Source: an uncultured Bacillota bacterium
GTDB lineage: Bacteria > Bacillota > Clostridia > Lachnospirales > Lachnospiraceae
Assembly (NCBI GenBank): GCA_949291945.1
Contig: CASEXH010000010.1
Coordinates: forward strand, 44,482 to 108,481
Length of the DNA: 64,000 nucleotides
Direction of reading: 5' to 3'
Shown: positions 1,261-21,570 of the stretch, piece after piece
Layout: every line of letters begins with the position of its first letter
Position numbering within the stretch: position 1 is the stretch's first letter
Notes under the pieces: model-generated
What the model was told of the DNA's origin: nothing
What the model saw: only the letters and a program-made list of their open reading frames with translations
The model's database searches: none
Program-made: the position numbers and the translations under genes

Positions 1261-1662
1261 CTATGCACCCTGCCTTTTTTCTTCCAAATTCCTTAAATGT
1301 TCTTCTGCTTTTCTCATATCACGGTCATAATTTTCAATTTTCTGATTCAGCCGGTCCAAAGATTCCTGCATTTCTTCCATCCGTGATATTAGCTGGTCTC
1401 TCTGATCCACCAGAATATTTTTTCTGGCTTCCAGGGTTGCATCCCCCTGTTGGAAAAGATCCACATACTCGATAAGGGCCTCAATCTGTACCCCGGCCTT
1501 TCTCATACACTTCATCAACTCCACCCAGCCGCAGGAAGCTTCGTCATAATTGCGGATCCCACTTTTCGTCCTGGGCACCGGGGGAATCAGTCCGATTCTC
1601 TCATAATACCGAAGAGTGTCCTGTGAAATATCATATTTCTTACTGACTTCCGCTATAGTCAT
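1261..1662 (-). CDS. MerR-family transcriptional regulator (AdhR-like)
   Basis: MerR HTH MTIAEVSKKYDISQDTLRYYERIGLI, a KCMR cysteine and a C-terminal coiled coil. Confidence 0.92.
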   Translation of the reverse strand: MTIAEVSKKYDISQDTLRYYERIGLIPPVPRTKSGIRNYDEASCGWVELMKCMRKAGVQIEALIEYVDLFQQGDATLEARKNILVDQRDQLISRMEEMQESLDRLNQKIENYDRDMRKAEEHLRNLEEKRQGA

Positions 1663-1982: not shown

Positions 1983-2258
1983 ATGAAACAATGCATGGAC
2001 GCTCCCAACCTTCACCGGCGCATGAAGAAAATCATGGGACAGTTAAATGCTATAGACAAAATGATCGATGAGGATGTTCCCTGTGAAGATATCCTGATAC
2101 AGATAAACGCCGCAAAAAGTGCCCTGCACAAGGTAGGGCAGGTAGTCCTGGAAGGCCATTTAAACCACTGCGTCCGGGACGGTATCGAACATGGCGATGC
2201 AGACAAAACTATCGCAGAATTTGCCAAGGCCATCGAGCATTTCTCCCGAATGTCCTAA
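1983..2258 (+). CDS. CsoR/RcnR-family metal-sensing repressor
   Basis: RMKKIMGQL...PCEDILIQINAAKSAL...GHLNHCV carries the Cys-His-Cys metal ligand pattern. Confidence 0.9.
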   Translation: MKQCMDAPNLHRRMKKIMGQLNAIDKMIDEDVPCEDILIQINAAKSALHKVGQVVLEGHLNHCVRDGIEHGDADKTIAEFAKAIEHFSRMS

Positions 2259-2412: not shown

Positions 2413-4146
2413 TCATTCTTCCCCGGGCATCTTCCATGCATGGTGATCTGTATGAAGGAGATGGTGGGCTATTTCAGAAAGGGGGGCTTCCAGGTAATCC
2501 TGGTAGCATTTGGTCACGGAAGGATTCTCATGTGAAAAACGCAGATTGTTTACTTTATCCAGCCCGTAAAGCACCGTGTTTCTCACTTCAGACAATTCTT
2601 CTCCATCCTTGATAGGCTGCCCTCCGCCGCCAGTGCAGCCCCCGGGACAGGCCATGATCTCCACAAAGTCATATTTCACCTTTCCTTTGCGGATGGCCTT
2701 CATCAGCTTCCTTGTATTGCCCAGTCCGCTGGCCACCGCTACCCGGATGGTCTGTCCTGCCAGATTGAATTCTGCCTCTTTCCATCCTTCCATTCCCCTG
2801 ACCTTTTTAAAAGAGTCCGGATCCGGGTTTCTTCCTGTCACCAGATAATAAGCAGTACGCAGAGCTGCTTCCATGACACCGCCGGTAGCTCCGAAAATAA
2901 CACCTGCCCCTGTTCCGGTTCCCAGAGGGGTATCGAATTCTTCCTCTTCCAGTCTGGAAGGATCAATGTGTTCAGAACGGATCAGGCGGACAACCTCTCT
3001 GGTAGTCAGCACTGCATCTACATCCTGCCCGGCGCCAGCGTCATTCATCACCGGAATATCACATTCCTGTTTTTTCGCAATGCAGGGCATGATAGACAGG
3101 GAAAAGATCCTGGAGGGATCCACTCCCAAAAGCTGGGCATAATAGGATTTTGCCACTGCCCCAAACATCTGCTGGGGAGATTTTGCGCTGGACAGCTGGT
3201 CCACCATATCCGGATACTGGGATTTCATAAATCTTACCCAGCCGGGGCAGCAGGATGTAAACATGGGATATCTTTCCAGATCGCCTTTTTTCAATCTTTC
3301 CAAAAATTCACTGCCCTCTTCCATGATGGTCAGGTCTGCGCTGAAATTGGTATCGAAAATATAATCAAACCCGATCTGCCGCAGAGCAGCTACCAGTCTT
3401 TTAACGGTTGCAAACTCCCGGGACAGGCCGAAAGACTCTCCCCAGGAAGTGCGGACTGCCGGAGCAAGCTGAACCACTGTGATTTTTTCTGGATCTGCCA
3501 GGGCATCCAGGACCTTACGCCGGTCATCTCTTTCCCTTAATGCTCCTACCGGGCAATGGGTAATGCACTGGCCGCAGAGAGCACAGTCTGATTCATCAAT
3601 CTTCCTGTTTCTGGAAACATCTACCGTTGTCCTGGATCCGGTTCCTGCCACATCCCAGATATTCAGGTTTTGTATCTTATCACAGACCTGCACACAGCGC
3701 ATACACTTGATACATTTTCCCGCATCACGGATCAGAGGAAATTCCATAGGCCACCGGGACCTGGGCAGTTCAATCTCAAAGGGCAGATCCAGGATCCCCA
3801 GATCATTGGAAATGGTCTGAAGGCTGCAGTTGCCGCTCCGCACACAGGTGGCGCATTTGCAGTCATGCTGTGACAGAATCAGTTCCACGTTATTTCTCCG
3901 GCTCTCCCGGACTTTGGGACTGTTGGTAAACACTTCCATACCATCCCACACTTCATTGTTGCAGGCAGTCACCAGCTTTGCGCAGTTCTTTACCTCTACC
4001 ACACAGACACGGCAGGCGCCGATTTCATTAATATCTTTCAGAAAGCACAGGGTTGGAATCCGGATCCCGGCCTGGGACGCAGCGTCTAAAATAGTGGTTC
4101 CTTCCTTTACTTCCACGTTTTTTCCGTTTATCGTCAGTTTTACCAT
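2413..4146 (-). CDS. hydA: [FeFe]-hydrogenase group A catalytic subunit
   Basis: H-cluster motifs FTSCCPGW, MPCIAKKQE and EIMACPGGCTGGGGQP, plus N-terminal 2Fe-2S, His-ligated 4Fe-4S and 2x4Fe-4S motifs. Confidence 0.97.
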   Translation of the reverse strand: MVKLTINGKNVEVKEGTTILDAASQAGIRIPTLCFLKDINEIGACRVCVVEVKNCAKLVTACNNEVWDGMEVFTNSPKVRESRRNNVELILSQHDCKCATCVRSGNCSLQTISNDLGILDLPFEIELPRSRWPMEFPLIRDAGKCIKCMRCVQVCDKIQNLNIWDVAGTGSRTTVDVSRNRKIDESDCALCGQCITHCPVGALRERDDRRKVLDALADPEKITVVQLAPAVRTSWGESFGLSREFATVKRLVAALRQIGFDYIFDTNFSADLTIMEEGSEFLERLKKGDLERYPMFTSCCPGWVRFMKSQYPDMVDQLSSAKSPQQMFGAVAKSYYAQLLGVDPSRIFSLSIMPCIAKKQECDIPVMNDAGAGQDVDAVLTTREVVRLIRSEHIDPSRLEEEEFDTPLGTGTGAGVIFGATGGVMEAALRTAYYLVTGRNPDPDSFKKVRGMEGWKEAEFNLAGQTIRVAVASGLGNTRKLMKAIRKGKVKYDFVEIMACPGGCTGGGGQPIKDGEELSEVRNTVLYGLDKVNNLRFSHENPSVTKCYQDYLEAPLSEIAHHLLHTDHHAWKMPGEE

Positions 4147-5978
4147 TTTTCAATCCTGCCTCCTTTCAGAATACCAAATCCAAAGTGGTCACAGCGGATA
4201 CATCTTCTGGCTTCCTGACAGGCCTCCTCGCAGGTCATTCCTTCTTCAATCAGTTCAAAGTCCTTGATCCTCTCAGAAGCCTGACGGACCTTCATATTTA
4301 CTCTGGCGCAGCTGCGGTTATCATCCAGACGTACTCTGGGGATTTCCACATCTGTGGAGATCACATGGTTGTATCCCAGGAATTCATCGATATTGGCTGC
4401 TGCCACCTTGCCTGCGGCGATTGCCCGGATGACTGTGGCCGGTCCGGTAACACAGTCGCCTCCTGCAAAGACGCCGGTAATATCTTTGGTCTTTACGCCG
4501 CTCCAGCTCATAGCCTCGATAACCCCCCGTTTCACCGGAATTCCCTGTTTTTCAAATTCTTTTGATTCAATGCCCTGACCAATGGCTACGATCACAATAT
4601 CACAGCCAAGACGCACAGGAGCTTTTGTAGATACCATAGGAACCGGTCTTCCATGTTTCATGGGGCCGATGATCTGAGGCTGCACCCACAAAGCTGACGC
4701 TCGGCCCTGGTCATCTACTTCAATCCTTAATGGTGCATGAAGATCCAAAAGTTCACAGCCCTCTTCAATGGCTCCTTCGATCTCCTCTTCCATAGCAGTC
4801 ATGTCTACCCGACGTCTCCGATAAGCGATCCGCACCCGTTTTGCTCCCAGGCGCACCGCAGACCGGGCTACATCCATGGCTACGTTTCCGCCACCTATAA
4901 CGACGATTTCCTTTCCTGTGAAATCCGGCATCTCGTCGTCTCCGATTTCCCGGAGAAGTTCCACAGCGGAGATGACGCCTTGGGCTTCTTCCCCTTCAAT
5001 GCCAATCTTTCTGTCAATATGTGCTCCAATGGCAATATAAACTGCATCATACTCTTCTCTTAAATCTGCGATATTTGGATCCTCTCCCACTGTTACCTCT
5101 GTCTTTACATGAATACCCAGACTTAAGAGATGGTTGATCTCCCGGTCCAGTTCCTCTCTTGGCAGACGGTAATTGGGGATTCCATAGCGGAGCATACCGC
5201 CCAGTTTCTTTCTCTGCTCAAAGATCGTCACCTCGTGTCCCATAAGGGTGAGATAATAAGCCGCACTGATACCTCCCGGGCCACCGCCTATAACAGCTAC
5301 CTTCTTTCCTGTAGCCACCGCCGGTACAGGAAGGGGAACATCGCCTGCATGATCTACTGCAAATCGTTTCAGTCCACGGATATTAACCGGATCATCTACC
5401 ATGGTCCTGCGGCACCGTACCTCGCAGGGATGTTCACAGATCAGGCCGCAGACTGCAGGAAGGGGATTATCTTTTCGGATCAGCCGCACCGCATCCCCGT
5501 ATCGGCCCTCTGCTACCAAAGCTACATAACCGGGAATATCCACTCCCGCCGGACATTGGGATACACAGGGAACCGGCTGGTTCAGCTCAAATTTACATCT
5601 TCCTCTTAAAACATGTTCCTCAAAATCATCTCTGAATCCGCGGATTCCTTTTAAAACCATTCTGGCAGCTTCATAGCCGATGGCGCAGTCTGCGGAATAA
5701 AAAATATTCCGTGCAGTTTTTTCGATAAGATCGATCACGGAAAGGTCCGCCTGTCCGTCCAGGACCTGCTCCATCAGCTTCTGGAGCTGACCCAGTCCTA
5801 CCCTGCAGGGCACACACTTTCCACAGGACTGGGCATGACAAAGTTTCAAAAAAGACGAGGCCAGATCCACAGGACATAGTCCGGGAGGACTGGCGCTGAT
5901 CCGTCTTTCCAGGTCTTTATACAGTTCTTCTACTGTCGCCTGGGCTTTGTTCTGTGTAATAATACTTAATCTGCTCAA
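4140..5978 (-). CDS. NAD(P)-binding GltD/SudA-like flavoprotein with an N-terminal NuoF-type 4Fe-4S domain; hydrogenase partner subunit
   Basis: Motifs SCGKCVPC...C, CVSQCP, CGLICEHPCE, GGGPGG, GGGNVAMD and C-terminal RCIRC. A TTG start at 5978 follows RBS GAGGAGG (the ORF-track start at 6158 is too far upstream). The stop overlaps the hydA start. Confidence 0.9.
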   Translation of the reverse strand: MSRLSIITQNKAQATVEELYKDLERRISASPPGLCPVDLASSFLKLCHAQSCGKCVPCRVGLGQLQKLMEQVLDGQADLSVIDLIEKTARNIFYSADCAIGYEAARMVLKGIRGFRDDFEEHVLRGRCKFELNQPVPCVSQCPAGVDIPGYVALVAEGRYGDAVRLIRKDNPLPAVCGLICEHPCEVRCRRTMVDDPVNIRGLKRFAVDHAGDVPLPVPAVATGKKVAVIGGGPGGISAAYYLTLMGHEVTIFEQRKKLGGMLRYGIPNYRLPREELDREINHLLSLGIHVKTEVTVGEDPNIADLREEYDAVYIAIGAHIDRKIGIEGEEAQGVISAVELLREIGDDEMPDFTGKEIVVIGGGNVAMDVARSAVRLGAKRVRIAYRRRRVDMTAMEEEIEGAIEEGCELLDLHAPLRIEVDDQGRASALWVQPQIIGPMKHGRPVPMVSTKAPVRLGCDIVIVAIGQGIESKEFEKQGIPVKRGVIEAMSWSGVKTKDITGVFAGGDCVTGPATVIRAIAAGKVAAANIDEFLGYNHVISTDVEIPRVRLDDNRSCARVNMKVRQASERIKDFELIEEGMTCEEACQEARRCIRCDHFGFGILKGGRIEKW

Positions 5979-6003
5979 TGAAAGATTCCTCCTCTCTTCT
6001 GAT

Positions 6004-6158
6004 AAAAAAGGGCGGCATTTATCGCTTATCCGATAAATGTCGCCCAGACGTCCGGCTTCTCTATCAGCTCTTGCCACATCATGGTACTCCATTTTATACG
6101 TCAGCAGCAAAAACCCTTTATTTAAATTCAACATATCACATTCAATGCCTTCTGTCAA
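6004..6158 (-). promoter_or_regulatory. Sigma-A promoter and 5' leader containing an intrinsic terminator (attenuator) ahead of the hydrogenase operon
   Basis: TTGACA (6158-6153), 17 bp, TATGTT (6135-6130). A 15-bp stem (6010-6024 / 6031-6045) is followed by T6 on the minus strand, ending ~25 nt before the TTG start. Confidence 0.7.
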
Positions 6159-6231: not shown

Positions 6232-7761
6232 TTATAGCTTTAATGATATTCCTGTGCTCTCAGCAGCTTTCAAAAGCTCTCCTTCCAGAAGCAGTTCCCG
6301 AACAGCTTCTATGTACGGTTCTAAAGCCACATCTTCTTTCAATGCCGGCATAACCTGGCGGATTTTCTTATATACGGCCTCCAGAGCAGGAGAAGATTTC
6401 ATCTCCGGATAAAATTCCTTTGCCTGGGCAGCGCAGATCAGTTCTATGGCAAGGATATATTGTCCAAGCTGAACACAGTCATATGCTTTTTTGGCCGCAT
6501 TATACCCCATACTTACATAGTCTTCCTGATTTGCGCAGGTCACAACATTGTCTACTACTGCCGGGGCAGACAGAAGCCGCATTTCTCCGATCAGACCGGC
6601 AGAAGTGTACTGAATCATCATCAGGCCGTCATTAAAATCCGCATCAGCATTCAGAAAAGGAGGTAATTCGCTGACATGACGGTTTACCAGACGGTCTGTC
6701 CTTCTCTCCGACATTTTTGCCAGGTCTGTAAGGGCAATGCACAGAAAATCTGAAGCCATTCCCAGATAGCTTCCGTCTGCATTGCATCCCATAACTGCCT
6801 CTGCCTGTCCATTTTCTTCAAAGATAAGAGGATTATCCACAGAAGAATTCAGTTCGATATCGATAGTTGACAGGCCGTCAGAAAGAGCTTTCTTCACAGC
6901 GCCGTGAAGCTGCGGGATACAGCGCAGGGACAGTGCGTCCTGCACCCGATAGTCTTTATACTTTTCGATAATCTGGCTTCCCTTCAGGAGATTCCGGATA
7001 TTTTCTGCTGTTTTTATCTGTCCTGGATGAGGCCTTGCCAGCATAAGTCTCTCATCCATGGCCATAACTGTTCCTTTCAGCATTTCCAGAGAAAAGGCTC
7101 CTGCAATATCTGCTGTTTTTGCAAGGATTACAGCATCATAGTAAGCCAGACATGCCAGCGCCGTTACAGATGTAGTTCCTGACACAAGGGTAAGACCTTC
7201 TTTTGCCCCAAGGACAACCGGCTTTAAGCCGGCCTTTTCCAGAGCCTCTTTTCCGGGGCAAAGCTCCCCTTTGTACCATGCCTTTCCCTCCCCGATCAGC
7301 ACCATACCGATATGAGCTTCCAGTCCAATGTAGCCCACCGATCCGTGTTTGGGAACTCTTGGAAAGATTCCCCGGTTCAGACATTCCCGCAGAAGTTCCA
7401 GAGTTTCCAGCCGAAATCCAGTATGGCCGCTTCCAAAATGGAGCAGCATAATAAACATCATAGCTCTTACCCCTTCTTCTTCAAGAGGTTCTCCTACAGA
7501 TACCGTATGGGCCAGGATATGATTTTTCTGGATCTTTACCCTTTCTTCTTCCGGAACAAATTTTCTGCAGTTGTCTCCAAGCCCTGTGGTAATTCCATAA
7601 ATTGCCTTTCCTTCCCGGCTGAACCGTTCTACATGGGTCCTGCACCGGCTGACTCTGTCCTTATATTCCTGAGAAAACTCCACTTTTGCGTGATGTCTTG
7701 CTACCTTTATCACCTGTTCCAGTGTGTTCTTTTCTTCCAAAATTACAGTCTTCATTTCCAA
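6232..7761 (-). CDS. HAL/PAL-fold ammonia-lyase family protein lacking the MIO-forming Ala-Ser-Gly
   Basis: Family motifs IYGITTGLG, QDALSLRCIPQLHG, DNPLIF and NQEDYVSMG are present. The MIO segment reads GSVGYIGLEAH instead of GSVGASGDLAPL. Confidence 0.88.
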   Translation of the reverse strand: MEMKTVILEEKNTLEQVIKVARHHAKVEFSQEYKDRVSRCRTHVERFSREGKAIYGITTGLGDNCRKFVPEEERVKIQKNHILAHTVSVGEPLEEEGVRAMMFIMLLHFGSGHTGFRLETLELLRECLNRGIFPRVPKHGSVGYIGLEAHIGMVLIGEGKAWYKGELCPGKEALEKAGLKPVVLGAKEGLTLVSGTTSVTALACLAYYDAVILAKTADIAGAFSLEMLKGTVMAMDERLMLARPHPGQIKTAENIRNLLKGSQIIEKYKDYRVQDALSLRCIPQLHGAVKKALSDGLSTIDIELNSSVDNPLIFEENGQAEAVMGCNADGSYLGMASDFLCIALTDLAKMSERRTDRLVNRHVSELPPFLNADADFNDGLMMIQYTSAGLIGEMRLLSAPAVVDNVVTCANQEDYVSMGYNAAKKAYDCVQLGQYILAIELICAAQAKEFYPEMKSSPALEAVYKKIRQVMPALKEDVALEPYIEAVRELLLEGELLKAAESTGISLKL

Positions 7762-7768: not shown

Positions 7769-8797
7769 TCAATTCAGCAGTCTGTTGTTTTCATAACCCC
7801 CTTCCAGGGAAACGCTCATACGCTTTAAGCGTTGATAAACATCCTCTTCAAGCTCTGTAACATTCTGATTTCTTTCATCGACAGGCTTATTCCCGAAAAT
7901 TTCCCCGGGCACATAAACCTGTCCGCCTGGTTTTATAGGAGGACATTCTCTTACTTCCTGGGCAAGATGGTCCACCTGCTCTTTAAAATCTTCCAGATCC
8001 GTAAACATTTCTGTTGAAAAGGCAAGGAACAGATATCCCAGATCATACTCATCTTTTCCGGCTCTTCCCATCTTTGCTCCTACAAAAGCGCCTGTCAGGA
8101 TCTCCAGAGCGTAGCATAAGGCATAGCCTTTTGGGCCTCCAAAGGGCACTCCCGCTTCTGCCCGCTTTGGACCTGTGGTAAAATTCCCCGCTTTATCTAT
8201 GAAGGCATTTTCCGGCAAAGGACGGTTCTCTACCATTGCCTGCCGCACCTCTCCCCAGACTTTCTGGGATGTAGCAAAGTCAAAGATATACGGTTTTCCT
8301 CTGCCGCTTGGGAAAGAAAAGCATAAGGGATTCGTCCCGAATATACCTCTGGCTCCTCCATAAGGCGCAACACATGCAGGTCCCCCATTATTCGTAATCA
8401 TTCCCACCAGACCTTCCTGGGCAATTTTTCTGGCATAAGGAGTTACTCGTGAATACCTGCTTACATTTTTCAGAGCTACAATTCCTACGCCGTACTCTTT
8501 TGCAGCCTCAATGGCAAGATTGGTCCCATATAAAGCAGCAATATGTCCCAGTTCTCCATTGCCGTCTATCTGGGCATAACAACCGTTTTTCCTGAGCAAC
8601 TTCATATCTCCCGTTCTTCTGGAAAGTCCTGCATCCACAGTCAGAAATTTAGATATCCCATGGGTCTTATGTCCTTCCAGCTCAGACTCCAGATAATCTG
8701 ACACCATAAAATCTGCATATTCTCCGCAGATCCCTCGAATCTCCAGAGACTTTGTCATTAGTTCTTTTATTTCTTCTATTTCTACGGTCACTGTCAT
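7769..8797 (-). CDS. Ldh_2-family oxidoreductase (DpkA/ComC/AllD-like)
   Basis: Motifs GHKTHG, GTNPLCFSFP, FDFATS and PFGGPKGYAL. Confidence 0.9.
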   Translation of the reverse strand: MTVTVEIEEIKELMTKSLEIRGICGEYADFMVSDYLESELEGHKTHGISKFLTVDAGLSRRTGDMKLLRKNGCYAQIDGNGELGHIAALYGTNLAIEAAKEYGVGIVALKNVSRYSRVTPYARKIAQEGLVGMITNNGGPACVAPYGGARGIFGTNPLCFSFPSGRGKPYIFDFATSQKVWGEVRQAMVENRPLPENAFIDKAGNFTTGPKRAEAGVPFGGPKGYALCYALEILTGAFVGAKMGRAGKDEYDLGYLFLAFSTEMFTDLEDFKEQVDHLAQEVRECPPIKPGGQVYVPGEIFGNKPVDERNQNVTELEEDVYQRLKRMSVSLEGGYENNRLLN

Positions 8798-8822: not shown

Positions 8823-9245
8823 CTATTTTTCCTCTGCACTGTCCAGGATTTCTATCAGTCCCCTGTCGGCATCCACCAGAATTCTGTCGCCGTCTTTTAC
8901 CTCCTCATAGAAGGCGGGATCCACCCGATCTACCATAGGAATTTCCATGATGATAGCGCTGGATACCAGTACAGTTTCCGGATACTGGATGATCATGGCA
9001 GCCGGAGAATTGTTTTTCTGGTTTAACTGATAAAGTCCGTCTGCCTGTACTACAGAGCTTCCCTTGCCTCCGGGAAAAATCAATACTTTATGGGCTACGG
9101 ATTTTCCTTCCAGATCATGGGCTTTCTCTATAACCTTTCCTGTAGCCGGATCTATGAGATAAAACATGATATTGTCTTTTGACACAACTGCCTCTGCTTC
9201 CGCTCGTCCCTCTGAAATCTTATGACATTGAAATACTTTTCCCAT
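8823..9245 (-). CDS. Aconitase X small (swivel) subunit, DUF126
   Basis: Motifs GRAEAEAVVS, GKSVAHKVLIFPGGKGSS and SAIIMEIPMVD; adjacent to the large subunit. Confidence 0.9.
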   Translation of the reverse strand: MGKVFQCHKISEGRAEAEAVVSKDNIMFYLIDPATGKVIEKAHDLEGKSVAHKVLIFPGGKGSSVVQADGLYQLNQKNNSPAAMIIQYPETVLVSSAIIMEIPMVDRVDPAFYEEVKDGDRILVDADRGLIEILDSAEEK

Positions 9246-9246: not shown

Positions 9247-10455
9247 TTATTTTACCTCCCCTGTAAGTGCTGCCTGTATACATGTATCAAGGTCCCGTAT
9301 AACAAAATGGATACCTCTCCGCTGAGGATAGTAGGCGCATTTCGGTGATTCTGTGATACCCACCTTTCCTGTAAGATGTCTCCAGCAAGGCTGATCCGGG
9401 CAGCTGTCCGGCACGATAAATCCTCCTGCATCAGTAATGATCTCATCCAGCCCCATCCGGACTGCCATCTCTTTCACATGACTGGAGGTCAGGATCCACA
9501 TTTCTTTTTTCAACGTTTTCCCTTCTACTCGTTCCGCAATATATTTCACTTCTTCCAGAGTAAAATGAGGACAGCCAAACATTGCAAAATCAATTTCCCG
9601 GTTTCCTTCCAGTGAAATTTCTTTCAGGATTTCTTCTTTATCCTCATTGGTGATCACTACTTTTCGTACAGGTTCTTTCCCCCCGAAAGCCGTCTCAAGA
9701 TCCGGTGCTTCCGGAGTATAGCCTACGATATGATACATTCCATAGGCACCTGAAGTATTTAACTGAGCTCCCAGATTTCTCAGAGCCTCTTTTGTAATAG
9801 TTTCCTTTGGAAAACCGGTAAACACCGGAACTCCCTCGCCGATCTTCTTCCCCAGCATACCAATCATATGATAGTCGAAGGGGGTTTTTACATCGGCCTG
9901 TATCTCTACCAGGACAGTTCCTCTTCTGTTTTCGTCCAGAAGCAGCCCGTATTCCGGCACATATCCGGTTATAGCCGCACACAGAGCGCTGTTTGCCCCT
10001 TCCCGGTTGGTCCTGGCCCCCCAGACAGCATTTGCGTAGGGCGTTGCGCTGGATTCTGAAAAAGCGATCACCTCTTTATAATTTGGCACATTTGTATCTA
10101 TGTAGGGCGTACAGTTGTAACTAAGCTGAGCCCCCAGAGCTTTATAGGCATTGTGGGTGCGCTGCATCAAGTCTGCAAATTCCGGTGCGACCATATTTCT
10201 GTTTTTAAAAAATTCCAGACAAAATCCCGGATTCACTGTAGGAGTCACACGACATCTGGCGCCCCCTTCCAGCATTTTTTCTGCAAACCACAGATCTGCT
10301 TCCTGATTTGAAAGTGCAACATGAGCTCTGGTGATAGGCACCATCCGCTCTGCACCGAAGGATTCTCCGATGGCCACCTGGATCTTCATAGCATAGGCAG
10401 TTCCTTTTCCATATTTTCCGTCCAGCATATCCTGCTGATGTTGTGTAAGCTCCAT
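9247..10455 (-). CDS. Aconitase X catalytic (large) subunit, DUF521
   Basis: Motifs TPTVNPG, YNCTPY, AFSESSA, WGARTNREG, ALCAAITG, FGCPH and DSC. Confidence 0.92.
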   Translation of the reverse strand: MELTQHQQDMLDGKYGKGTAYAMKIQVAIGESFGAERMVPITRAHVALSNQEADLWFAEKMLEGGARCRVTPTVNPGFCLEFFKNRNMVAPEFADLMQRTHNAYKALGAQLSYNCTPYIDTNVPNYKEVIAFSESSATPYANAVWGARTNREGANSALCAAITGYVPEYGLLLDENRRGTVLVEIQADVKTPFDYHMIGMLGKKIGEGVPVFTGFPKETITKEALRNLGAQLNTSGAYGMYHIVGYTPEAPDLETAFGGKEPVRKVVITNEDKEEILKEISLEGNREIDFAMFGCPHFTLEEVKYIAERVEGKTLKKEMWILTSSHVKEMAVRMGLDEIITDAGGFIVPDSCPDQPCWRHLTGKVGITESPKCAYYPQRRGIHFVIRDLDTCIQAALTGEVK

Positions 10456-10479: not shown

Positions 10480-10860
10480 CTATAATTTCACAATGGCTCC
10501 TACTTCTATTTTCATACCTCCCCACAGTTCCAGGGCAACGCCGCTTCTGGCCGGAGGGCATTCTGTTCCGAAAAACTCTTCGTAAATTTCATTCATAGCG
10601 TCAAAGTCTTTCATGGTAGACAAAAACACATCGCATTTCACCACATCCTCCATAGAAGCTCCCAGCTCTTCCACAATCAATTTCAGATTGCCAAGGGCTC
10701 TCCTTGTTTCTTCCTGGATGGTTCCATGGATGATTTCTCCCGTTTCAGGATCCAGGGCGATCTGACCCGAAACAAAAGCAAATCCCCCTGCTATAGCTAC
10801 CTCTGCCACCGGACCGCCAAAAACTTTCATTCCTTTAGGGGTAAATACTTCTTTTTTCAT
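10480..10860 (-). CDS. RidA/YjgF/UK114-family protein
   Basis: Motifs FVSGQIALDP, VVKCDVFL, DFDAMNEIY and PPARS. Confidence 0.92.
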   Translation of the reverse strand: MKKEVFTPKGMKVFGGPVAEVAIAGGFAFVSGQIALDPETGEIIHGTIQEETRRALGNLKLIVEELGASMEDVVKCDVFLSTMKDFDAMNEIYEEFFGTECPPARSGVALELWGGMKIEVGAIVKL

Positions 10861-11025: not shown

Positions 11026-13908
11026 TTATTCTTCTAATCTTTTCAGCTCTTCTCTCAGGAAATCACTGCCAAGCCTTTTTGCTAGCTTCTCAGAAATTTC
11101 TCTATGTTTTGCCCCCTCTTCTGCATCTCCTGCGGCTTCCAGAACAATTCCGATACACCGCTCTGCTTTCGCCTCTCCCCAGACAGAGCCTACTTTTGCA
11201 AAATATTCTTTAGCTATATATGCATATTGCTCCGCTTTTTCAAACTCTCCCAGATGATACAGAGCAAAGCTCATATCTGAGTAAAAAATCCCTGTCTCTC
11301 CGTATATTTTGTATTCCTCTCCCAGATGGATGGCCTGTTCCAGATATCCGCAGGCCTCCTGCCATTTTTTTTGCCGTATATAGCACAGTCCCATATTGTG
11401 ATAACAAGCAGAAAGCTCCTTTAAATATTTCGCCTTTTTTTCCTCTCTGCCGCCCAGGTAATTAATAGCCTCCTGGTAAAGTTTTTCCGCTTCTGCATAC
11501 TCACCGTTCTTTACCTTGGAAGTTGCCAGATAGCGCAGCAGCATACATTCCTCTTCTATGTGATGATGGGTGCAGTCTTTCATAAATATCATGCAGGTAT
11601 CGATAACATCCTGCATAAAGCCATTCTGTCCGGTCAGATCTCCGTACAAAATCAGCTGCAGATAATTATAAAACATATAGTCTCTGTCCTGCAGTTCTCT
11701 TGCCAGTTCCAGGCTTTTTTCCACATGTTTCTTTCCCTGGCTGCTGTCTGCTACAAACATTTCATATCTTCCCAGCAGATACTCTATGCGCATACGTATG
11801 GGGGCAAGCTCTGGCTTCTCCTCCTGCTGTTCTTTGATTTCCTCTGCCAGAAGTACCAGTTCATCCTCACGGGCATAATAACCGTCTATATTTCCGCTGA
11901 AGACAGCTTTTCTCGCCAGCATAGGATATAGAGCATATGTAATAGTATAAAAAGGTTCCAGGTATTTGACTTTATACTCATATGTTTTATATAAATTTCC
12001 GCACTGTTCATAATGATACAAAACCAGAGAACAGATTTCCAGATCCGGAGTTTCTCTGTATCTTTCTTCATAAAACCGTGCGATATAAGCATGATACATA
12101 TTCCTTTTTTCTTCAGACAGAGATTTGTATACATACTCATGAAGGATCTGATGGCGGAATCCATACCGAATTTCTCCTTTTGACCATTTTTCACAGAGGA
12201 TCTTTTTCTCCAGCAATGGCTCCAGGATCTGCCGCAGCTGTCCGTCTTCCAGGCCGAAAATCTGGTTGATCTCCTGAAGAGACGCCGGAAGAGAAAAAAT
12301 AGACAGAATATCCAGTAGTGTACGCTCCCGTCTGGACAATCTGAGAAGACGGCTTTGGAGCACATTGGAGGTTTTGTCAGTAAAGCCTTCCCAGGCATCC
12401 CCTTCATCAAAAAGCCGCAGAGATTCCATAAAAAACAAAGGATTTCCCTGGGTCTTTTCATATATTTCCCGGGCCAGTACAGGATCTTTCTCCAGGCCGC
12501 TTCCTGACTGGCTGATGATTTCCTGTGTTTCCGCAAAAGTAAAAGGCTTCAGGATGATTTCTTTTAAAAGGCCCCTGCCGATCAGAGGGATCTTGAAATT
12601 TTTTATAGCATCTCCATCCTCTTCTCTGTATGCGGCCATGACCAGAAGATTTCCATGGCCCATACGAAATAAAAGATTACTCATAAGACGTACGCTCATT
12701 GGATCCATCCACTGGATATCGTCAATGAGCAGAAGAATCTTCTTATTCCGGAAATTTTTAGATAAATATCGGAAAACCGACTCTGTTAAAACTTCAAACC
12801 TGGTCATCAGAAAACGAAGATCCGTATCTGTGTGATTCTGAAGTATATCAATGGGGGAGTCTACCGTCAGTCCATTTATTTTGCAGTATTCTGCCACAGC
12901 TTCCATAATGCCGTACCAGGCCATCAAATAGAGCTCTTTTTCTGTCTCGCAGCAGTTCCAGGAAAAGACCAGATAATCTGACTTTTCAAACATCCTGTGG
13001 ATCTGCTCCAGCAGCATACTTTTCCCAATACCCGGCTCACCGGTTATCAGGTAAGATACCTGGCTTCTTTCATCACTTTCTTCATTAGCAAAGACCTTGA
13101 AATAAATATCATAGAGGATATCTGTCCTTCCGAAAAAATAATCTTTTGTCTTTAGATCAGGAAGTTTCAGACTCTTCTTCATGCCTGAAATCTTCTCAAA
13201 AAGATTTTTTGTCTCTTCTTCCGGCTCTTCTCCCACTTCTTTTTTCAAAAACTCTCTCAGTTTCTGATAAAGCTCTACAGCAACCGAATATCTGCCGGCT
13301 TCTGCCATTTTCTTCATAATGCAGCGGTAGATCTCCTCGTCCATCCATTCCTGCTGCAAGAATATCCGTCCGCTTTCTTCCAGAAATTCCGGTTCTTCTC
13401 CTGGTTTCAACTCCATGATCTTCAGCTGCAGAGCTTTTATATAATCCCGTCTGCGCCTGAGTCTTTCGCCCTCTGCCCAATCCTCAAATTCATAGCAGTT
13501 TTTCACATAAAAAAACTGCAGAAATTCTCCTCTGACTTTTTCCAGCAAGTTTTCTCTTGTATCCTGTTCAATATCAATGCTGATATCTCTTTCCCTGTTC
13601 AATGCGATCCTGCTGTTTCCCTCTATAATAAGAATATCCTGTCCCAAAACCTTTCGTATATTATAAAGAGCATCTCTTAAGTTCTTTCTTGCAGTAGTTT
13701 CGCTGGAATCTGCCCATAAAACTCCAATAGCCTGGGTCCTGGTTATCTGATTATTTACACACAGGTAATAGAACAGGCCTTCAACCTTTTGATAGGGAAA
13801 ACTAACCTCCTCGCCTTTATGCCGAACCGCAGGAGTACCCATAAGCCAGACTTCTACGTCATGTTGCCATTTCTGTTCTCCTCTCTGAGATGTGTATTCT
13901 GTATTCAT
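11026..13908 (-). CDS. Large SARP/STAND-type activator (wHTH-BTAD, AAA ATPase, TPR sensor)
   Basis: N-terminal LRDALYNIRKVLG and BTAD region, Walker A GEPGIGKS, Walker B LLIDDIQW, GNPLF motif and C-terminal TPR-like helices. Confidence 0.85.
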   Translation of the reverse strand: MNTEYTSQRGEQKWQHDVEVWLMGTPAVRHKGEEVSFPYQKVEGLFYYLCVNNQITRTQAIGVLWADSSETTARKNLRDALYNIRKVLGQDILIIEGNSRIALNRERDISIDIEQDTRENLLEKVRGEFLQFFYVKNCYEFEDWAEGERLRRRRDYIKALQLKIMELKPGEEPEFLEESGRIFLQQEWMDEEIYRCIMKKMAEAGRYSVAVELYQKLREFLKKEVGEEPEEETKNLFEKISGMKKSLKLPDLKTKDYFFGRTDILYDIYFKVFANEESDERSQVSYLITGEPGIGKSMLLEQIHRMFEKSDYLVFSWNCCETEKELYLMAWYGIMEAVAEYCKINGLTVDSPIDILQNHTDTDLRFLMTRFEVLTESVFRYLSKNFRNKKILLLIDDIQWMDPMSVRLMSNLLFRMGHGNLLVMAAYREEDGDAIKNFKIPLIGRGLLKEIILKPFTFAETQEIISQSGSGLEKDPVLAREIYEKTQGNPLFFMESLRLFDEGDAWEGFTDKTSNVLQSRLLRLSRRERTLLDILSIFSLPASLQEINQIFGLEDGQLRQILEPLLEKKILCEKWSKGEIRYGFRHQILHEYVYKSLSEEKRNMYHAYIARFYEERYRETPDLEICSLVLYHYEQCGNLYKTYEYKVKYLEPFYTITYALYPMLARKAVFSGNIDGYYAREDELVLLAEEIKEQQEEKPELAPIRMRIEYLLGRYEMFVADSSQGKKHVEKSLELARELQDRDYMFYNYLQLILYGDLTGQNGFMQDVIDTCMIFMKDCTHHHIEEECMLLRYLATSKVKNGEYAEAEKLYQEAINYLGGREEKKAKYLKELSACYHNMGLCYIRQKKWQEACGYLEQAIHLGEEYKIYGETGIFYSDMSFALYHLGEFEKAEQYAYIAKEYFAKVGSVWGEAKAERCIGIVLEAAGDAEEGAKHREISEKLAKRLGSDFLREELKRLEE

Positions 13909-14138: not shown

Positions 14139-16010
14139 ATGATTTCATCTATGAAAGACTTGTTTCTCAATGAAACAAAAAGAAGCATTTTATTTCTTGT
14201 GATCTCCGGTCTCTCTCTGCTGATCAGTTTTCTGGAGCCGGAAGGTATTCTTTTTAACACAGCCTGGATCGCCATTCTTCTCTGCGGGATCCCAATCATC
14301 AAAGAAGCCATAGAAGGCCTTGTCACACGGTTTGACATTAAAGCAGACGTATTAGTATCTCTGGCTCTGATCGCTTCAGTGATCATTGGAGAGATCTTTG
14401 CTGCCGGCGAAGTGGCTTTTATCATGCAGATCGGTTCTCTTTTAGAAGAACTTACTGTAGCCAAGGCAAGGGCTGGTATTGAAAAGCTGGTACACCTTAC
14501 CCCTTTAACTGCACGAAAGATCCTAAACGGCAAAGAAATCATCCTGCCGGCTAAAGAGGTGGCTGTCAATGATGTACTCCGGGTTCTTCCGGGAGAGACT
14601 ATCCCTGTAGACGGGGTAATCCTATCCGGAGAGACCTCCGTGGATCAGGCCGTTATGACAGGAGAATCTCTTCCGGTGGACAAAGGTCCGGGAGACGAGG
14701 TATCCAGCGGAACGGTCAACCAGTTCGGTTCTTTTGATATGAAAGCTTCCAGAGTAGGGGAAGACAGCTCTATCTGGCGGATGATCCGTCTGGTCCAGTC
14801 TGCTGATGCCGGAAAGGCCAAGATCGTAAGGCTGGCAGACCGGTGGGCCACCTGGATCGTGGTCATCGCTCTGACTGCCGCAGCTCTTACCTGGCTGATA
14901 TCCGGCCAGATCATCCGGGCTGTGACCATACTGGTAGTCTTCTGTCCCTGTGCCCTGGTACTGGCCACTCCCACCGCCATCATGGCGGCCATCGGAAATG
15001 CTACAAAGCATGGTTTCCTGGTAAGAGAAGGCGACGCTCTGGAGCGCCTGGCTCAGGTCTCTCAAGTTGCCTTTGACAAGACAGGAACCCTCACTTATGG
15101 AAAACCTCAGGTAGCGGCTGTAGAAAGTTTCTCACCGGATATTTCCTCTGAAAAACTATACCGTCTTGCCGCCGAAGCTGAGCTTCGTTCAGAACACCCC
15201 CTTGGCAAAGCAGTAGTCCAGGGATACAAGCAGTCTTATCCTGAAACCGCACCTGAAGCTCCCCAATCCTTTTCCATGCTCCCGGGCAAAGGCGTAAAAG
15301 CCATGGCAGATCACGTGGAGGTGCTGGCAGGCAATCCCTCTCTCCTGGAGGAGAATCAGATTTCCATACCTCAAAAAGCCCTGGATTCTGCAGCAGGCTA
15401 TATACAAAAGGGCTGCACTCTTATTTATCTGGGAATTGAAAAAAGGTTCGGAGGATTTGCGGCCCTTTGGGATACCCTGAGGGAAACTGCTCCTGAAATG
15501 ATCAGCAGGCTGAAACAGCTTGGCCTCACTCCCGTACTTATGACCGGGGATCATGAAAATGCTGCCAGGACCATTGCTGATCAGCTGCATATTGATAAAG
15601 TCCATGCCGGCTGTCTCCCGGAGGATAAGCTCAATTACATAGCCTCTTCCCAGGGAAAAAAAGAAATGGTATGTATGATCGGAGATGGCATCAACGATGC
15701 TCCTGCACTGAAAAAAGCCCATGTGAGCATTGCCATGGGCGGAGTGGGAAGTGATATTGCTGTAGACGCAGCCGACATTGCTCTGGTAAATGATGACATC
15801 AAGGAGCTTCCACATCTGGTTTCTCTGTCCAGAAAGATGATGACTACGATCAAATGCAATCTGGCATTCTCCATGACTTTGAATTTTGCAGCCATCATAC
15901 TGGCGATTACGGGGATCCTGAACCCCGTAGTAGGCGCTCTCGTCCACAATGCAGGATCTGTGCTGGTGATCATAAACTCCAGCCTGCTGCTGACCTATAG
16001 GAAAAAATAA
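14139..16010 (+). CDS. Heavy-metal-translocating P1B-type ATPase
   Basis: Motifs TGES, CPC, DKTGT, SEHP and GDGINDAP; no N-terminal metal-binding domain. Confidence 0.95.
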   Translation: MISSMKDLFLNETKRSILFLVISGLSLLISFLEPEGILFNTAWIAILLCGIPIIKEAIEGLVTRFDIKADVLVSLALIASVIIGEIFAAGEVAFIMQIGSLLEELTVAKARAGIEKLVHLTPLTARKILNGKEIILPAKEVAVNDVLRVLPGETIPVDGVILSGETSVDQAVMTGESLPVDKGPGDEVSSGTVNQFGSFDMKASRVGEDSSIWRMIRLVQSADAGKAKIVRLADRWATWIVVIALTAAALTWLISGQIIRAVTILVVFCPCALVLATPTAIMAAIGNATKHGFLVREGDALERLAQVSQVAFDKTGTLTYGKPQVAAVESFSPDISSEKLYRLAAEAELRSEHPLGKAVVQGYKQSYPETAPEAPQSFSMLPGKGVKAMADHVEVLAGNPSLLEENQISIPQKALDSAAGYIQKGCTLIYLGIEKRFGGFAALWDTLRETAPEMISRLKQLGLTPVLMTGDHENAARTIADQLHIDKVHAGCLPEDKLNYIASSQGKKEMVCMIGDGINDAPALKKAHVSIAMGGVGSDIAVDAADIALVNDDIKELPHLVSLSRKMMTTIKCNLAFSMTLNFAAIILAITGILNPVVGALVHNAGSVLVIINSSLLLTYRKK

Positions 16011-16109: not shown

Positions 16110-16877
16110 TTATTTCCGGTTTTTCTGATAGATGATATACAGTCCCTTCAGCAGCAGGTTATCATCTAAAATCACTTTTCTCCGGCAATGAGGAACGATC
16201 CTTTTAGCCAGTCCGCCAGTAGCGACGACTGTAGCCGTCTCTCCCAGTTCTTCCTCCAGCCGGTCAATGATTCCGTCCATAGCTGCCGCTGCACTGTAGA
16301 TCACACCGCTTTTCATACATTCTGTTGTGTTCTTTCCAATAATGTGTTCCGGAGCCTCCAGGCTGATGCCGCCAAGCTGGGAAGCATGGGCCGTCAGAGA
16401 ATCCAAAGATACTCCGATACCCGGATAAATCATACCGCCAATATAGTTTTTATTCCGGTCAATAACACATACCGTATTGGCGGTACCCAGGTCAAAAATC
16501 AGCAAAGGCACCGGATATTCGGCAATCCCCGCCACAGAGTCCACCACCAGATCACTTCCCAGCTGAGCCGGGTTGTCAATCCGGATATTCAAGCCTGTCT
16601 TAATACCCGCTCCCACGATCAGGACTTCCTTTTTCAGTATTTTTTCTACTGCCAGCTTTGCCGCCCTGGTCACCTGGGGAACCACAGAGGAAATAATCCC
16701 TCCTTCCAGCTGTTCCTGCCGGATATGGTAAATGTCCAAAACATTTTTGATATCAATGGCATATTCCAGTTCTGTCTTGGTATGGACAGTGGAAAGGCGC
16801 TCCACAAACAGACATTCTCCCTTCTGGATACAGCCAATGACAATATTTGTATTTCCGATATCAATCGCTAAAATCAT
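16110..16877 (-). CDS. coaX: Type III pantothenate kinase
   Basis: Motifs LAIDIGNTN, SSVVP, GSDL, DLGTA and ATGG. Confidence 0.95.
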   Translation of the reverse strand: MILAIDIGNTNIVIGCIQKGECLFVERLSTVHTKTELEYAIDIKNVLDIYHIRQEQLEGGIISSVVPQVTRAAKLAVEKILKKEVLIVGAGIKTGLNIRIDNPAQLGSDLVVDSVAGIAEYPVPLLIFDLGTANTVCVIDRNKNYIGGMIYPGIGVSLDSLTAHASQLGGISLEAPEHIIGKNTTECMKSGVIYSAAAAMDGIIDRLEEELGETATVVATGGLAKRIVPHCRRKVILDDNLLLKGLYIIYQKNRK

Positions 16878-17562
16878 AAGTAAAACCTAATCTTTCCCTG
16901 ATATTCTTTTTCATCAGCACACGGCCGATAAAGAAGGTAAGGATCCCTGCCACAATGGCTTCAGGAACTCCATTGATTCCAATAATAGATAAGATGAATC
17001 CGTATACAGCCTGGACAGCCACCTCATTGGCCGCCGCATAAGCTTCTCTGAAAAACAGAAAGATCATGTTCATGACCAGCAAAGTATTCACCAGTGCGCC
17101 TGAAATTCCCGCCAGGATCAGTCCCAGATTGGAAACTCCCTTGCTTGTCCCGAACTTTTTCACTCCCTTGTAGACAAAGTAGGGAACCACTCCTACCAAT
17201 ATCCTGGGAACGAAGCAGATAAGGATGCTTCCGATCCCGCCGCTGAACTCTCCAAGATTATAAAAGGGTGTAAAAACAAAAGATGTGACGGTAGGGTTCA
17301 TCGTGTTGTTAATGAAGCTGGTAAGGCCGAAAAGAAATCCCAGACCCGCTCCTTTCTTTGGTCCCAGAAGCAGAGATGCCAGTATAACGGGGATGTGGAT
17401 AATCGTGGCTCTTGTAAATCCCAGAGGGATATATCCGAGAAAAGGGGTAAAAGCCATGATCACAATGATCGCCCCGAAAATGGCGGTCTGCACCATACTT
17501 CTGATCTGTCGTCTGTTATCTCCAGGCGTCCGCCTGGCTGCTGTGTTCTGATAATGATTCAT
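16861..17562 (-). CDS. panT: ECF transporter S component, pantothenate (PanT-like)
   Basis: Motif TPFLGYIPLGFTRATIIHIPV; located between coaBC and coaX. Confidence 0.8.
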   Translation of the reverse strand: MNHYQNTAARRTPGDNRRQIRSMVQTAIFGAIIVIMAFTPFLGYIPLGFTRATIIHIPVILASLLLGPKKGAGLGFLFGLTSFINNTMNPTVTSFVFTPFYNLGEFSGGIGSILICFVPRILVGVVPYFVYKGVKKFGTSKGVSNLGLILAGISGALVNTLLVMNMIFLFFREAYAAANEVAVQAVYGFILSIIGINGVPEAIVAGILTFFIGRVLMKKNIRERLGFTYDFSD

Positions 17563-17655
17563 AATTGCCTCCTTGTTATCGTTCTTTTTTGAGATACAAT
17601 ACTTTTGGCACAGAAATCTCTTTCTGCTCTTGTTCTTTAAGGTTCAGGCCTGATT

Positions 17656-18855
17656 TTACGCCTGTGCCATGTTCTTTAAAATCTGGTCCAGAATTTTTAA
17701 GGCTGCCTCCTCCTTTAACATTTTTTCAAGTGAAACTTCCTCATTTTCTGTGATCATGGTGATCACATTGGTATTTCCGGCAAATCCTGCTCCTTCTACC
17801 TTGAGATTGTTGGCCACGATCATGTCCAGATTTTTGTTTTTCAGTTTTTTCCTGGAATTTTCCAGCATATTCTCTGTCTCCATAGAAAATCCGCAGAGAA
17901 ACTGTCCCTGTTTCTTATGCTCTCCCAGATATTTGAGAATATCCCTGGTCCTTTCCATCTCCAGGGAAATATCCTCTCCCTGTTTCTTCACCTTTTCCTG
18001 GCTGACAGTTTTGGGCCGGTAGTCCGCCACTGCCGCTGCTTTGATGATAATATCCTGTTCTCCTGCACGGCTGGTCACTTCCTGGAACATATCCTCTGCA
18101 GTTACCACAGGAACCACTTCTACAAATTCCGGCGGCGTAATCGCTGCAGGACCCGACACCAGGGTAACCTGAGCCCCTCTCAGCATGGCCATCTTTGCCA
18201 GAGCATAGCCCATTTTCCCGGATGAATGATTGGTAATGTACCGCACCGGATCTATGGGTTCCTGAGTAGGTCCTGCAGTGACCAGAACCTTCTTTCCCTC
18301 CAGATTTTTCGGGAAAGCAATCTCCTTTAAGATATACTGGAGAAGCAGCTCCGGTTCCGGCATTTTGCCCTGACCGGTATCTCCGCAGGCCAGATAACCG
18401 GAAGCCGGACTGATCACCTCACAGCCATAGTGCTCCAGTGTCTTCAGATTATCCTGAACGATGGGATTCTCGTACATCTGGGTGTTCATAGCCGGCGCAA
18501 AGATTATTTTGCAGCGGCAGGCCATCACTGTGGTGGTCAGCATGTCATCGGCAATGCCATGGGCGATCTTCCCGATTATATTGGCCGAAGCCGGAGCCAC
18601 CATAACCACATCTGCTTTTTTTGCCAGTGCCACATGTTCCACATTGTACTGAAAGTTCCTGTCGAAAGTATCGATCAGGCACTTATTTCCCGTCAGAGTC
18701 TCAAAAGTAATGGGATTAATGAAGTTCTCTGCGTTTTTTGTCATCAGCACGTGTACGTCTGCATGAAGCTTTTTCAGGGCGCTGGCAAGGGAAGCGATCT
18801 TGTATGCGGCAATGCTTCCTGTCACTGCCAGCACAACTGTTTTACCTTTCAGCAT
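17656..18855 (-). CDS. coaBC: Phosphopantothenoylcysteine decarboxylase/synthase
   Basis: Motifs TGSIAAYK, PAMNTQMY, TAGPTQEPIDPVRYITNHSSGKMG and AAVADY. Confidence 0.97.
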   Translation of the reverse strand: MLKGKTVVLAVTGSIAAYKIASLASALKKLHADVHVLMTKNAENFINPITFETLTGNKCLIDTFDRNFQYNVEHVALAKKADVVMVAPASANIIGKIAHGIADDMLTTTVMACRCKIIFAPAMNTQMYENPIVQDNLKTLEHYGCEVISPASGYLACGDTGQGKMPEPELLLQYILKEIAFPKNLEGKKVLVTAGPTQEPIDPVRYITNHSSGKMGYALAKMAMLRGAQVTLVSGPAAITPPEFVEVVPVVTAEDMFQEVTSRAGEQDIIIKAAAVADYRPKTVSQEKVKKQGEDISLEMERTRDILKYLGEHKKQGQFLCGFSMETENMLENSRKKLKNKNLDMIVANNLKVEGAGFAGNTNVITMITENEEVSLEKMLKEEAALKILDQILKNMAQA

Positions 18856-21564: not shown

Positions 21565-21570
21565 TCTTCT

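Follow-up and report, generated by a model that had tools for sequence, protein, structure and literature searches.

A histidine ammonia-lyase homologue of gut Clostridia with a replaced cofactor loop is a probable trimethylamine-lyase for a histidine-derived betaine

An open reading frame at positions 6232 to 7761 (reverse strand) of a 64,000-nucleotide stretch of contig CASEXH010000010.1 (assembly GCA_949291945.1, an uncultured member of the Lachnospiraceae; the whole stretch is referred to as the window) encodes a protein of the histidine ammonia-lyase (HAL) fold that has lost the ability to form the 4-methylideneimidazole-5-one (MIO) cofactor. We propose that this lyase is probably a MIO-independent trimethylamine (TMA)-lyase for a histidine-derived betaine, i.e. 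ergothioneine, hercynine or a derivative. Elimination of trimethylammonium without a cofactor is the best supported reading because the substrate-binding residues are kept, residues dealing with the amine and with MIO are changed, and relatives of the enzyme are linked by gene context with the uptake of quaternary amines, with an ergothioneine module and with the urocanate pathway. From these data we infer the leaving group, the substrate itself and what the neighbouring aconitase X (AcnX) and Ldh_2-family dehydrogenase do.

The MIO loop is replaced in a protein of the HAL fold

The Pfam model PF00221 (Lyase_aromatic) covers the protein end to end with an E-value of 1e-162, in agreement with an earlier reading of the DNA letters (the sequence-only reading), which had described the open reading frame as a HAL-fold lyase. 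Translation from the TTG codon at 7761 gives 509 amino acid residues. The ATG codon at 7755 is the likelier start, as judged from a GGAG element upstream at a spacing of 7 nucleotides and from the resulting length of 507 residues, which is that of the Blautia orthologues. Residue numbers of the lyase (Tyr55, Glu148, etc.) count from the TTG start, and HAL numbers are those of the Pseudomonas putida enzyme; equivalent positions come from a HMMER alignment to P. putida HAL (1eb4/1b8f) and from a MAFFT alignment with HAL and ergothionase.

Both alignments agree that the MIO-forming segment of HAL, GSVG-ASG-DLAPLAH, reads GSVG-YIG-LEAH in the lyase (7312..7344; all features of the lyase are on the reverse strand). 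Tyr144-Ile145-Gly146 takes the place of Ala142-Ser143-Gly144, the three residues Asp145-Leu146-Ala147 are deleted, and a new glutamate, Glu148, stands at Leu149. Because the central serine is absent, MIO cannot form. The cofactor pocket has changed too: Asn195 is replaced by Ser194 (7180..7182) and Tyr280 by Leu277 (within Gln274/Leu277/Arg280, 6922..6942), both as in ergothionase, and Phe329-His330 by Ala328-Asp329 (6775..6780). The catalytic base Tyr53 is retained as Tyr55 (7597..7599), the HAL-type imidazole-binding switch Ser82-His83 as Ala84-His85 (7507..7512), the carboxylate binders Gln277 and Arg283 as Gln274 and Arg280, and Glu414 as Glu413 in the motif NQEDY (6517..6531), in which His416 has become Tyr; the equivalent of Asn313 is also present. 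The loop replacement, the three pocket substitutions and the retained equivalents of Tyr53, His83, Arg283 and Glu414 had all been named in the sequence-only reading, and each of them is right by alignment.

Of the hallmarks of a MIO-dependent HutH, the lyase thus shares the catalytic tyrosine and the binders His83, Gln277, Arg283, Asn313 and Glu414; it lacks the ASG tripeptide and the Asn195/Tyr280/Phe329 set, and its score against the hutH model TIGR01225 (512.2 bits) falls under the equivalog cut-off of 539.15. These observations support the earlier conclusion that the protein is not a HutH and has lost its MIO capacity. It displays the combination described for MIO-independent trimethylammonia-lyases, namely a PF00221 fold without the MIO tripeptide in which the tyrosine and the substrate binders are kept, and the retained residues are those to which the Shewanella studies assign the binding of the carboxylate group and of both imidazole nitrogens of histidine (10.1101/2025.08.13.670108).

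A missing cofactor would also be expected of a catalytically dead or slow HAL relic, or of a protein turned to binding or regulation. We see only a very slight chance of this. The ratio of nonsynonymous to synonymous substitutions (dN/dS) against Blautia orthologues is 0.05-0.06, which indicates strong purifying selection, with no sign of the relaxed selection that the sequence-only reading had named as a point against itself; the MIO-less state is therefore selected and not a product of decay. Furthermore, active-site residues are invariant in 33 diverse family members, down to 60% identity, and the protein belongs to a large clade with conserved operon contexts.

The nearest solved structures are HALs, that of Thermoplasma acidophilum (7tqr) with 334 bits and that of P. 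putida with about 275 bits, whereas Treponema denticola ergothionase (6s7j) scores 203 bits at approximately 30% identity. An AlphaFold model of the lyase, built with 33 family members as input, has a mean predicted local distance difference test (pLDDT) score of 82.6 and superimposes on 7tqr with template modelling scores of 0.87-0.92. It is uninformative on the pocket because the active-site loops (residues 54-62, 139-143 and 401-415) are poorly modelled, with pLDDT below 50.

Proposed reaction and comparison with known enzymes

In the reaction that we propose, a histidine-type substrate would be held by the carboxylate binders Gln274, Arg280 and Asn and by the imidazole binders His85 and Glu413. 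Tyr55 would take the beta-proton in an elimination of E2 or E1cB type, and the leaving group at N-alpha, most likely trimethylamine, would be expelled without an electrophilic cofactor, giving urocanate or thiourocanate together with TMA. The space freed by MIO, Asn195, Tyr280 and Phe329 would be relined by Tyr144, Glu148, Ser194, Leu277 and Ala328 and could accommodate a bulky trimethylammonium group, with Tyr144 and Glu148 replacing MIO as a cation-binding wall. More speculatively, the co-transcribed AcnX, an Fe-S hydro-lyase, and Ldh_2, together with a RidA-family protein, may process the acrylate product ahead of its entry into the urocanase pathway.

Homologues of HAL without MIO are known as trimethylammonia-lyases, including ergothionase and the lyases for histidine betaine and N(pi)-methyl-histidine betaine (10.1101/2025.08.13.670108; 10.64898/2026.04.22.720169). 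T. denticola ergothionase resembles the window lyase in its MIO-less HAL fold, in the catalytic tyrosine, the Gln/Arg/Asn carboxylate binders and the His83/Glu414 imidazole binders, in the changes of Asn195 to Ser and Tyr280 to Leu, and in the recruitment of acidic residues into the former MIO loop. The loop itself differs: it is GE-GD with a deletion of one residue in ergothionase and GY with a deletion of three residues and the added glutamate here. Phe329 and Lys384 of ergothionase correspond to Ala and Tyr, and with the lower score than to HAL and a position in a distinct clade of the tree, the lyase is not an orthologue of the T. denticola enzyme. The histidine betaine and N(pi)-methyl-histidine betaine trimethylammonia-lyases Swoo_3913 of Shewanella woodyi and SO_3299 of Shewanella oneidensis share with it the absence of MIO and of a lysine at position 384; they act on histidine-derived betaines and have been proposed to feed anaerobic metabolism (10.1101/2025.08.13.670108). 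HutH (P. putida 1b8f, T. acidophilum 7tqr) is closest in sequence and fold and has the same binders for the substrate skeleton, but differs in the ASG motif and in the replaced Asn195/Tyr280/Phe329, and the window lyase lies outside any hutH-hutU-hutI operon.

Position 384 is used to separate ergothionases (Lys) from hercynine-type enzymes (Asn or Gln), and in sequences of the ergothionase clade it is Lys in 118, Asn in 7 and Asp in 1 of 126. The sequence-only reading had placed a tyrosine of the segment MIQYT at this position. The alignment confirms the placement; the tyrosine carries no weight, since it is also found there in most genuine, ASG-containing HALs and is therefore not diagnostic.

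Distribution and phylogeny of the GY clade

Of the 120 closest homologues of the lyase, 118 have the motif GSVGY[LIV]xLExH, and the central residue of the loop is Ile, Leu or Val in all family members. Among the best 150 representatives of 50%-identity clusters in an exhaustive HMMER search, about two dozen carry the loop with tyrosine and deletion, and we refer to them as the GY clade; the others are HALs with ASG. The catalytic tyrosine, the carboxylate binders and the His83/Glu414 pair are kept in all members of the clade. In three MIO-bearing representatives included in the clade alignment position 414 is Gln, and in one of these position 83 is Leu. The sequence-only reading had suggested a lyase for a pre-activated amine, either quaternary or cyclic. 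The quaternary, TMA-releasing part is supported, if indirectly, by Ser195 and Leu280 and by the BCCT, MttB and ergothionase-operon contexts described below. The cyclic amine and proline betaine options are disfavoured because Ser/Ala82-His83 and Glu414 are invariant across the clade. We also considered ring opening of ectoine or hydroxyectoine and the dicarboxylate betaines of aspartate and glutamate as substrates; these found no support, as His83 and Glu414 argue for an imidazole.

Sub-clades vary at positions 195, 198, 280, 329 and 416, and some of them retain Asn195, Tyr280 and Phe329 while being MIO-less. The subtype of the window lyase, defined by Ser195, Thr198, Leu280, Ala329, Asp330, Tyr386 and Tyr416, forms a clean group in the tree. 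In a neighbour-joining tree rooted on the sequence with Leu83 and Gln414, the GY clade groups with ergothionases, and pairwise scores disagree with this placement; the two clades may have lost MIO in a single event or independently. The closest match to the window is Candidatus Blautia avicola (92%). Hosts include Blautia, Oscillibacter, Fimivivens, Hominicoprocola, Sporomusa, Sedimentibacter, Alkaliphilus, Maledivibacter, Acidaminobacter, Wukongibacter and Terrisporobacter, and a single metagenome scan yielded 263 confirmed GY-clade stretches, from Blautia, Oscillibacter and relatives; many come from the human gut, in whose metagenomes the clade is common. Annotations call the members HAL/PAL/TAL ammonia-lyase or histidine ammonia-lyase. 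There is no model for ergothionase in NCBIfam, and a true ergothionase orthologue matches only the hutH model there, below the cut-off.

Gene neighbourhoods of relatives

We fetched 112 loci and scored the neighbouring genes by BLAST and Pfam; 106 loci carry a lyase of the window subtype, and these form 25 groups at 90% identity. A transporter is adjacent to the lyase in 22 of the 25 groups (SSF in 15, BCCT in 6 and DUF401 in 1), a sigma-54 activator is found in 14, and an AcnX pair in 6. BCCT carriers move quaternary ammonium and sulfonium compounds, with few exceptions such as ectoine.

Two further proteins recur in these loci. A Cys-rich protein of approximately 315 residues (e.g. 6328-7287 in locus L017) lies by the lyase in 11 of the 25 groups; only its C-terminal 2x[4Fe-4S] (Fer4) domain is recognisable, and the N-terminal region with CNCKC and CNCDGYCCYP is unassigned. 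A protein of approximately 180 residues, here called c3 (9428-9970 in L018 and equivalents, 16 of the 25 groups), nearly always follows the SSF gene, is absent from BCCT contexts and has no match in Pfam, NCBIfam or the PDB. We rejected c3 as a partner enzyme of the lyase, since it tracks the SSF transporter and not the lyase or the BCCT contexts; it may be an accessory protein of the transporter.

In B. hominis, B. celeris and Blautia producta DSM 2950, an orthologue with 79-81% identity ends a longer operon in the order SSF, c3, a 45%-identical GY paralogue, AcnX-a, AcnX-b, an MttB-family methyltransferase, Ldh_2 and the lyase. The methyltransferase is of the quaternary-amine type, without an amber codon, in all three species. 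In B. producta DSM 2950 this cluster (L021, 81% orthologue) is the only lyase cluster that we found, and hutU lies 9 kb downstream. Locus L030, from a metagenome-assembled genome, has the paralogous lyase and both AcnX pairs followed directly by hutU-hutI-FTCD, i.e. urocanase, imidazolonepropionase and formiminotransferase. No HAL of the ASG type was found in loci L001-L030, which were scanned for the motif. M20 and S9 peptidases recur in B. producta (L021, 14337-20165) and in L019 (4374-7587), either between the lyase cluster and urocanase or close to them; histidine-containing dipeptides or N-acyl-histidines are perhaps additional inputs.

These Blautia loci bear on a distinct possibility, that the lyase is a gut-type ergothionase converting ergothioneine to thiourocanate and TMA, that AcnX and Ldh_2 make up the reductive thiourocanate desulfhydrase yielding urocanate and H2S, and that the whole cluster is the published Blautia pathway. 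B. producta is reported to consume ergothioneine through thiourocanate (10.64898/2026.04.22.720169) and a reductive desulfhydrase; the published B. producta catabolism is cited there and in PMC13405746. The single L021 cluster with hutU in its vicinity would fit this pathway. Of the best 120 homologues of T. denticola-type ergothionase most come without an organism name, and none of the named ones is from Blautia. An extra Fe-S, Mo or hydride-transfer partner is near the lyase in 15 of the 25 contexts, as would suit a product in need of desulfurisation. On the other side stand the missing Lys384, a role of AcnX in C-S cleavage that is purely inferred, and approximately 10 of the 25 lyase groups that have no redox partner within the fetched DNA, which is short for some loci.

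Bona fide ergothionases, 67-82% identical to 6s7j and with Lys384, were found in Sedimentibacter and in an Anaerosphaera-like contig. Their operons (L111, 6415-13219; L112, 6438-14681) encode, in this order, the 2Fe-2S, FAD and Mo subunits of an enzyme of the xanthine dehydrogenase family, the ergothionase and a BCCT transporter, and this Mo enzyme might carry out the reductive desulfurisation of thiourocanate mentioned in the literature. The Sedimentibacter operon is preceded by a regulator of BTAD-AAA-TPR architecture, and BCCT transporters, Mo enzymes of the xanthine dehydrogenase type and BTAD regulators are associates that ergothionases share with the GY clade. In L112 a GY-clade lyase follows the ergothionase operon; in L024 and L025 the Mo-enzyme/BCCT module has two GY lyases and no ergothionase, so that a GY lyase takes the ergothionase slot, which again favours ergothioneine as a substrate.

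The co-occurrence in L112, as well as GY lyases beside ergothionases in L004, L041 and L106, suggests complementary specificities and would suit an alternative that we regard as rather unlikely, namely a lyase for hercynine or for another ring- or S-modified histidine betaine that feeds urocanate-type products into the regulon of a true ergothionase. The absence of lysine at the thiolate-binding position agrees with it, and at least 7 lyase groups have a transporter and a regulator only, which would be enough if the product were urocanate. With plain urocanate as the product, the recurrent Fe-S and Mo partners are left without explanation, and in Oscillibacter ergothionase paralogues of the Asn type, the hercynine-lyase signature of Swoo_3913, are present alongside.

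In this genus the GY lyase, AcnX and a 3-hydroxyacyl-type dehydrogenase lie between an SSF gene and two ergothionase paralogues, with a Lys384 ergothionase and a Mo enzyme next door. The locus of Oscillibacter sp. GMB15532 (L004, 1928-18501) holds four MIO-less HAL-fold lyases: one belongs to the GY type, and the others are ergothionase types in which position 384 is Lys, Asp or Asn. A xanthine dehydrogenase-type Mo enzyme, AcnX, the 3-hydroxyacyl-type dehydrogenase, a transporter of the SSF family and a BTAD regulator are encoded there as well, and the locus resembles a multi-substrate island for histidine-betaine catabolism.

A third alternative replaces the quaternary amine by another activated one, such as N-methyl- or N,N-dimethyl-histidine left by MttB or ammonia lost from a ring-activated histidine, or replaces the imidazole by a proline, aromatic or aliphatic betaine. 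An MttB-family demethylase in one Blautia operon with two lyase subtypes would be compatible with it, as would the MIO-less sub-clades that keep Asn195, Tyr280 and Phe329 and the M20 and S9 peptidases near the lyase in B. producta and Acidaminobacter. In addition, MIO-less HAL mutants are said to turn over 5-nitrohistidine. This alternative is without precedent; the BCCT neighbours suggest a quaternary amine and the His83/Glu414 pair an imidazole, and we consider it quite improbable.

Several observations weigh against a TMA-lyase for a histidine-derived betaine. The lyase has Tyr where Lys384 is reported to be essential for the thione substrate, and it does not have the Asn or Gln of hercynine-type enzymes either. 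In L004 a clade member stands beside ergothionase paralogues of the Lys, Asn and Asp types, and the obvious substrates are perhaps already covered by these. Genes for a BCCT or SSF transporter, for MttB or for a Mo enzyme are lacking in the window, and AcnX orthologues with 86-88% identity occur in contexts that are free of the lyase. Overall, the functional assignment builds on association. Elimination of TMA from a histidine-derived betaine is still the reading that we favour.

The operon in the window and its aconitase X

The lyase is the last gene of an operon on the reverse strand in the order RidA, AcnX large, AcnX small, Ldh_2 and lyase, with gaps of 0-25 nucleotides. A RidA-family protein (10480..10860), found only in the Blautia clusters of the window type, comes first, followed by the large (type II, 9247..10455) and small, or swivel (8823..9245), subunits of AcnX and the Ldh_2-family NAD(P)-dependent dehydrogenase (7769..8797), whose stop lies 13 nucleotides before the likely ATG of the lyase. 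Orthologues of Ldh_2 with 78-94% identity occupy the same position in Blautia loci, and its closest solved relative is L-sulfolactate dehydrogenase. Upstream of the operon, on the same strand, lies a regulator of BTAD-AAA_16-TPR (SARP/AfsR-like) architecture (11026..13908), an arrangement that also flanks the lyase cluster of L030 (42% identical) and the Sedimentibacter ergothionase cluster L111. The operon in the window, which belongs to the same genus, is a reduced form of the B. producta cluster: transporter and MttB genes are missing, and there is one lyase and one AcnX pair where B. producta has two of each.

The window AcnX has the general features of the family: Cys115 and the cysteines of GCPH and DSC, which make up the three cluster cysteines, the Glu-Ser-Ser (ESS) motif, Lys361 and Tyr365 all align in the large subunit, and the catalytic serine is kept in the small one (GKGSSV). 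The two characterised functions are marked by a phosphate loop, Gly48-Val49-Ser50 in TkAcnX, and by Asp203 and Thr72 of AtAcnX, which bind the ring nitrogen (PMC8184944). In the window AcnX the loop of the mevalonate-5-phosphate dehydratase (type IIb) is deleted, as seen in an alignment to 7cnr; of the cis-3-hydroxyproline dehydratase residues, the Asp203 position is deleted and Thr72 is Val. Both sets of landmarks being absent, this AcnX therefore falls among the bacterial subclasses left unassigned by Watanabe et al. The non-polar residues at the proline-nitrogen site suggest a substrate without a 2-amino group, for example an enoate or a 3-hydroxy acid.

Candidate roles for the module were rejected on the same grounds. 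A mevalonate-5-phosphate dehydratase would need the deleted phosphate loop, and a route from cis-3-hydroxyproline to proline via AcnX, Ldh_2 and RidA, with the lyase opening a cyclic amine, would need Asp203 and Thr72. Ldh_2 as a Pip2C/Pyr2C reductase was dismissed at 99 bits versus 162 bits to sulfolactate and malate dehydrogenases.

In the lyase-free contexts AcnX has as neighbours TRAP DctPQM transporters and GntR regulators, a LarA-type Ni-pincer isomerase, or an IlvD/Edd dehydratase together with a D-2-hydroxyacid dehydrogenase. The link between the module and the lyase is therefore not a strict one, and the substrate of the module would be a free organic acid that cells can also take up from outside. 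Uptake of thiourocanate is reported for other gut bacteria. A hydride-transfer enzyme accompanies AcnX in 5 of the 6 context types seen, with none in L028 and L030. Processing of thiourocanate by the module is an attractive but speculative idea; the window pair is a candidate for a third AcnX function. Taking this one step further, the GY clade might be a second MIO-less lineage whose substrate is a histidine betaine not used by the known ergothionase and hercynine lyases, and the AcnX pair with its hydride-transfer enzyme might represent that third function, e.g. Fe-S-based processing or desulfurisation of (thio)urocanate, an extension that we put forward only tentatively.

Novelty and significance

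The sequence-only reading had also raised the prospect of a new enzyme. This is doubtful, since TMA-releasing MIO-less homologues of HAL are already an established enzyme class and ergothioneine catabolism in B. producta has been published. Feng et al. (JACS 2025, 10.1021/jacs.4c09350) reportedly describe this catabolism, and the GY clade may already have been characterised through the orthologous B. producta cluster. A literature search, which did not extend to Feng et al. 2025 and Zhou et al. 2025, found nothing specific on the GY clade, on AcnX together with the lyase or on other betaine lyases.

Gut-bacterial TMA is oxidised to trimethylamine N-oxide, a cardiovascular risk marker, and ergothioneine is a protective dietary antioxidant. 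Ergothionase has been judged rare in gut bacteria, where BLAST searches with the Burkholderia enzyme gave only "histidine ammonia-lyases" (PMC13405746). If the GY clade consists of betaine TMA-lyases, surveys with T. denticola- or Burkholderia-type queries underestimate the degradation of ergothioneine and hercynine in the gut, and GSVGY-x2-LE-x-H would serve as a simple marker separating GY genes from true hutH. Should the clade act on another histidine betaine and be paired with a third AcnX function, it would stand for a so far overlooked path to TMA in the gut, perhaps also to H2S, in a clade widespread in gut and sediment Clostridia. The lyase-linked AcnX genes provide a handle on the bacterial AcnX subclasses that are still unassigned.

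Other genes in the window

Downstream of the lyase, at a distance of 73 nucleotides, the region 2413-6158 (reverse strand) encodes a NuoF/GltD-like NAD(P)-binding Fe-S flavoprotein of 672 residues and an NADH-dependent [FeFe] hydrogenase of group A6, whose score of 787 bits exceeds the cut-off; this H2/NAD(P)H module may serve the operon. The same pair is found downstream of the lyase in Candidatus Blautia avicola (L005), and a promoter-like TTGACA-17-TATGTT site lies at 6158-6130 of the window. By eye, we recognised a MerR-family regulator (1261-1662, reverse strand), a CsoR/RcnR-like small protein (1983-2258, forward strand) and a P1B-type heavy-metal ATPase (14139-16010, forward strand) with CPC and DKTGT motifs in its translation. 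The region 16110-24302 (reverse strand) has a housekeeping character, with type III pantothenate kinase, an ECF S-component, CoaBC and a five-gene Opp/Dpp-type ABC transporter (SBP_bac_5, two permeases and two ATPases).

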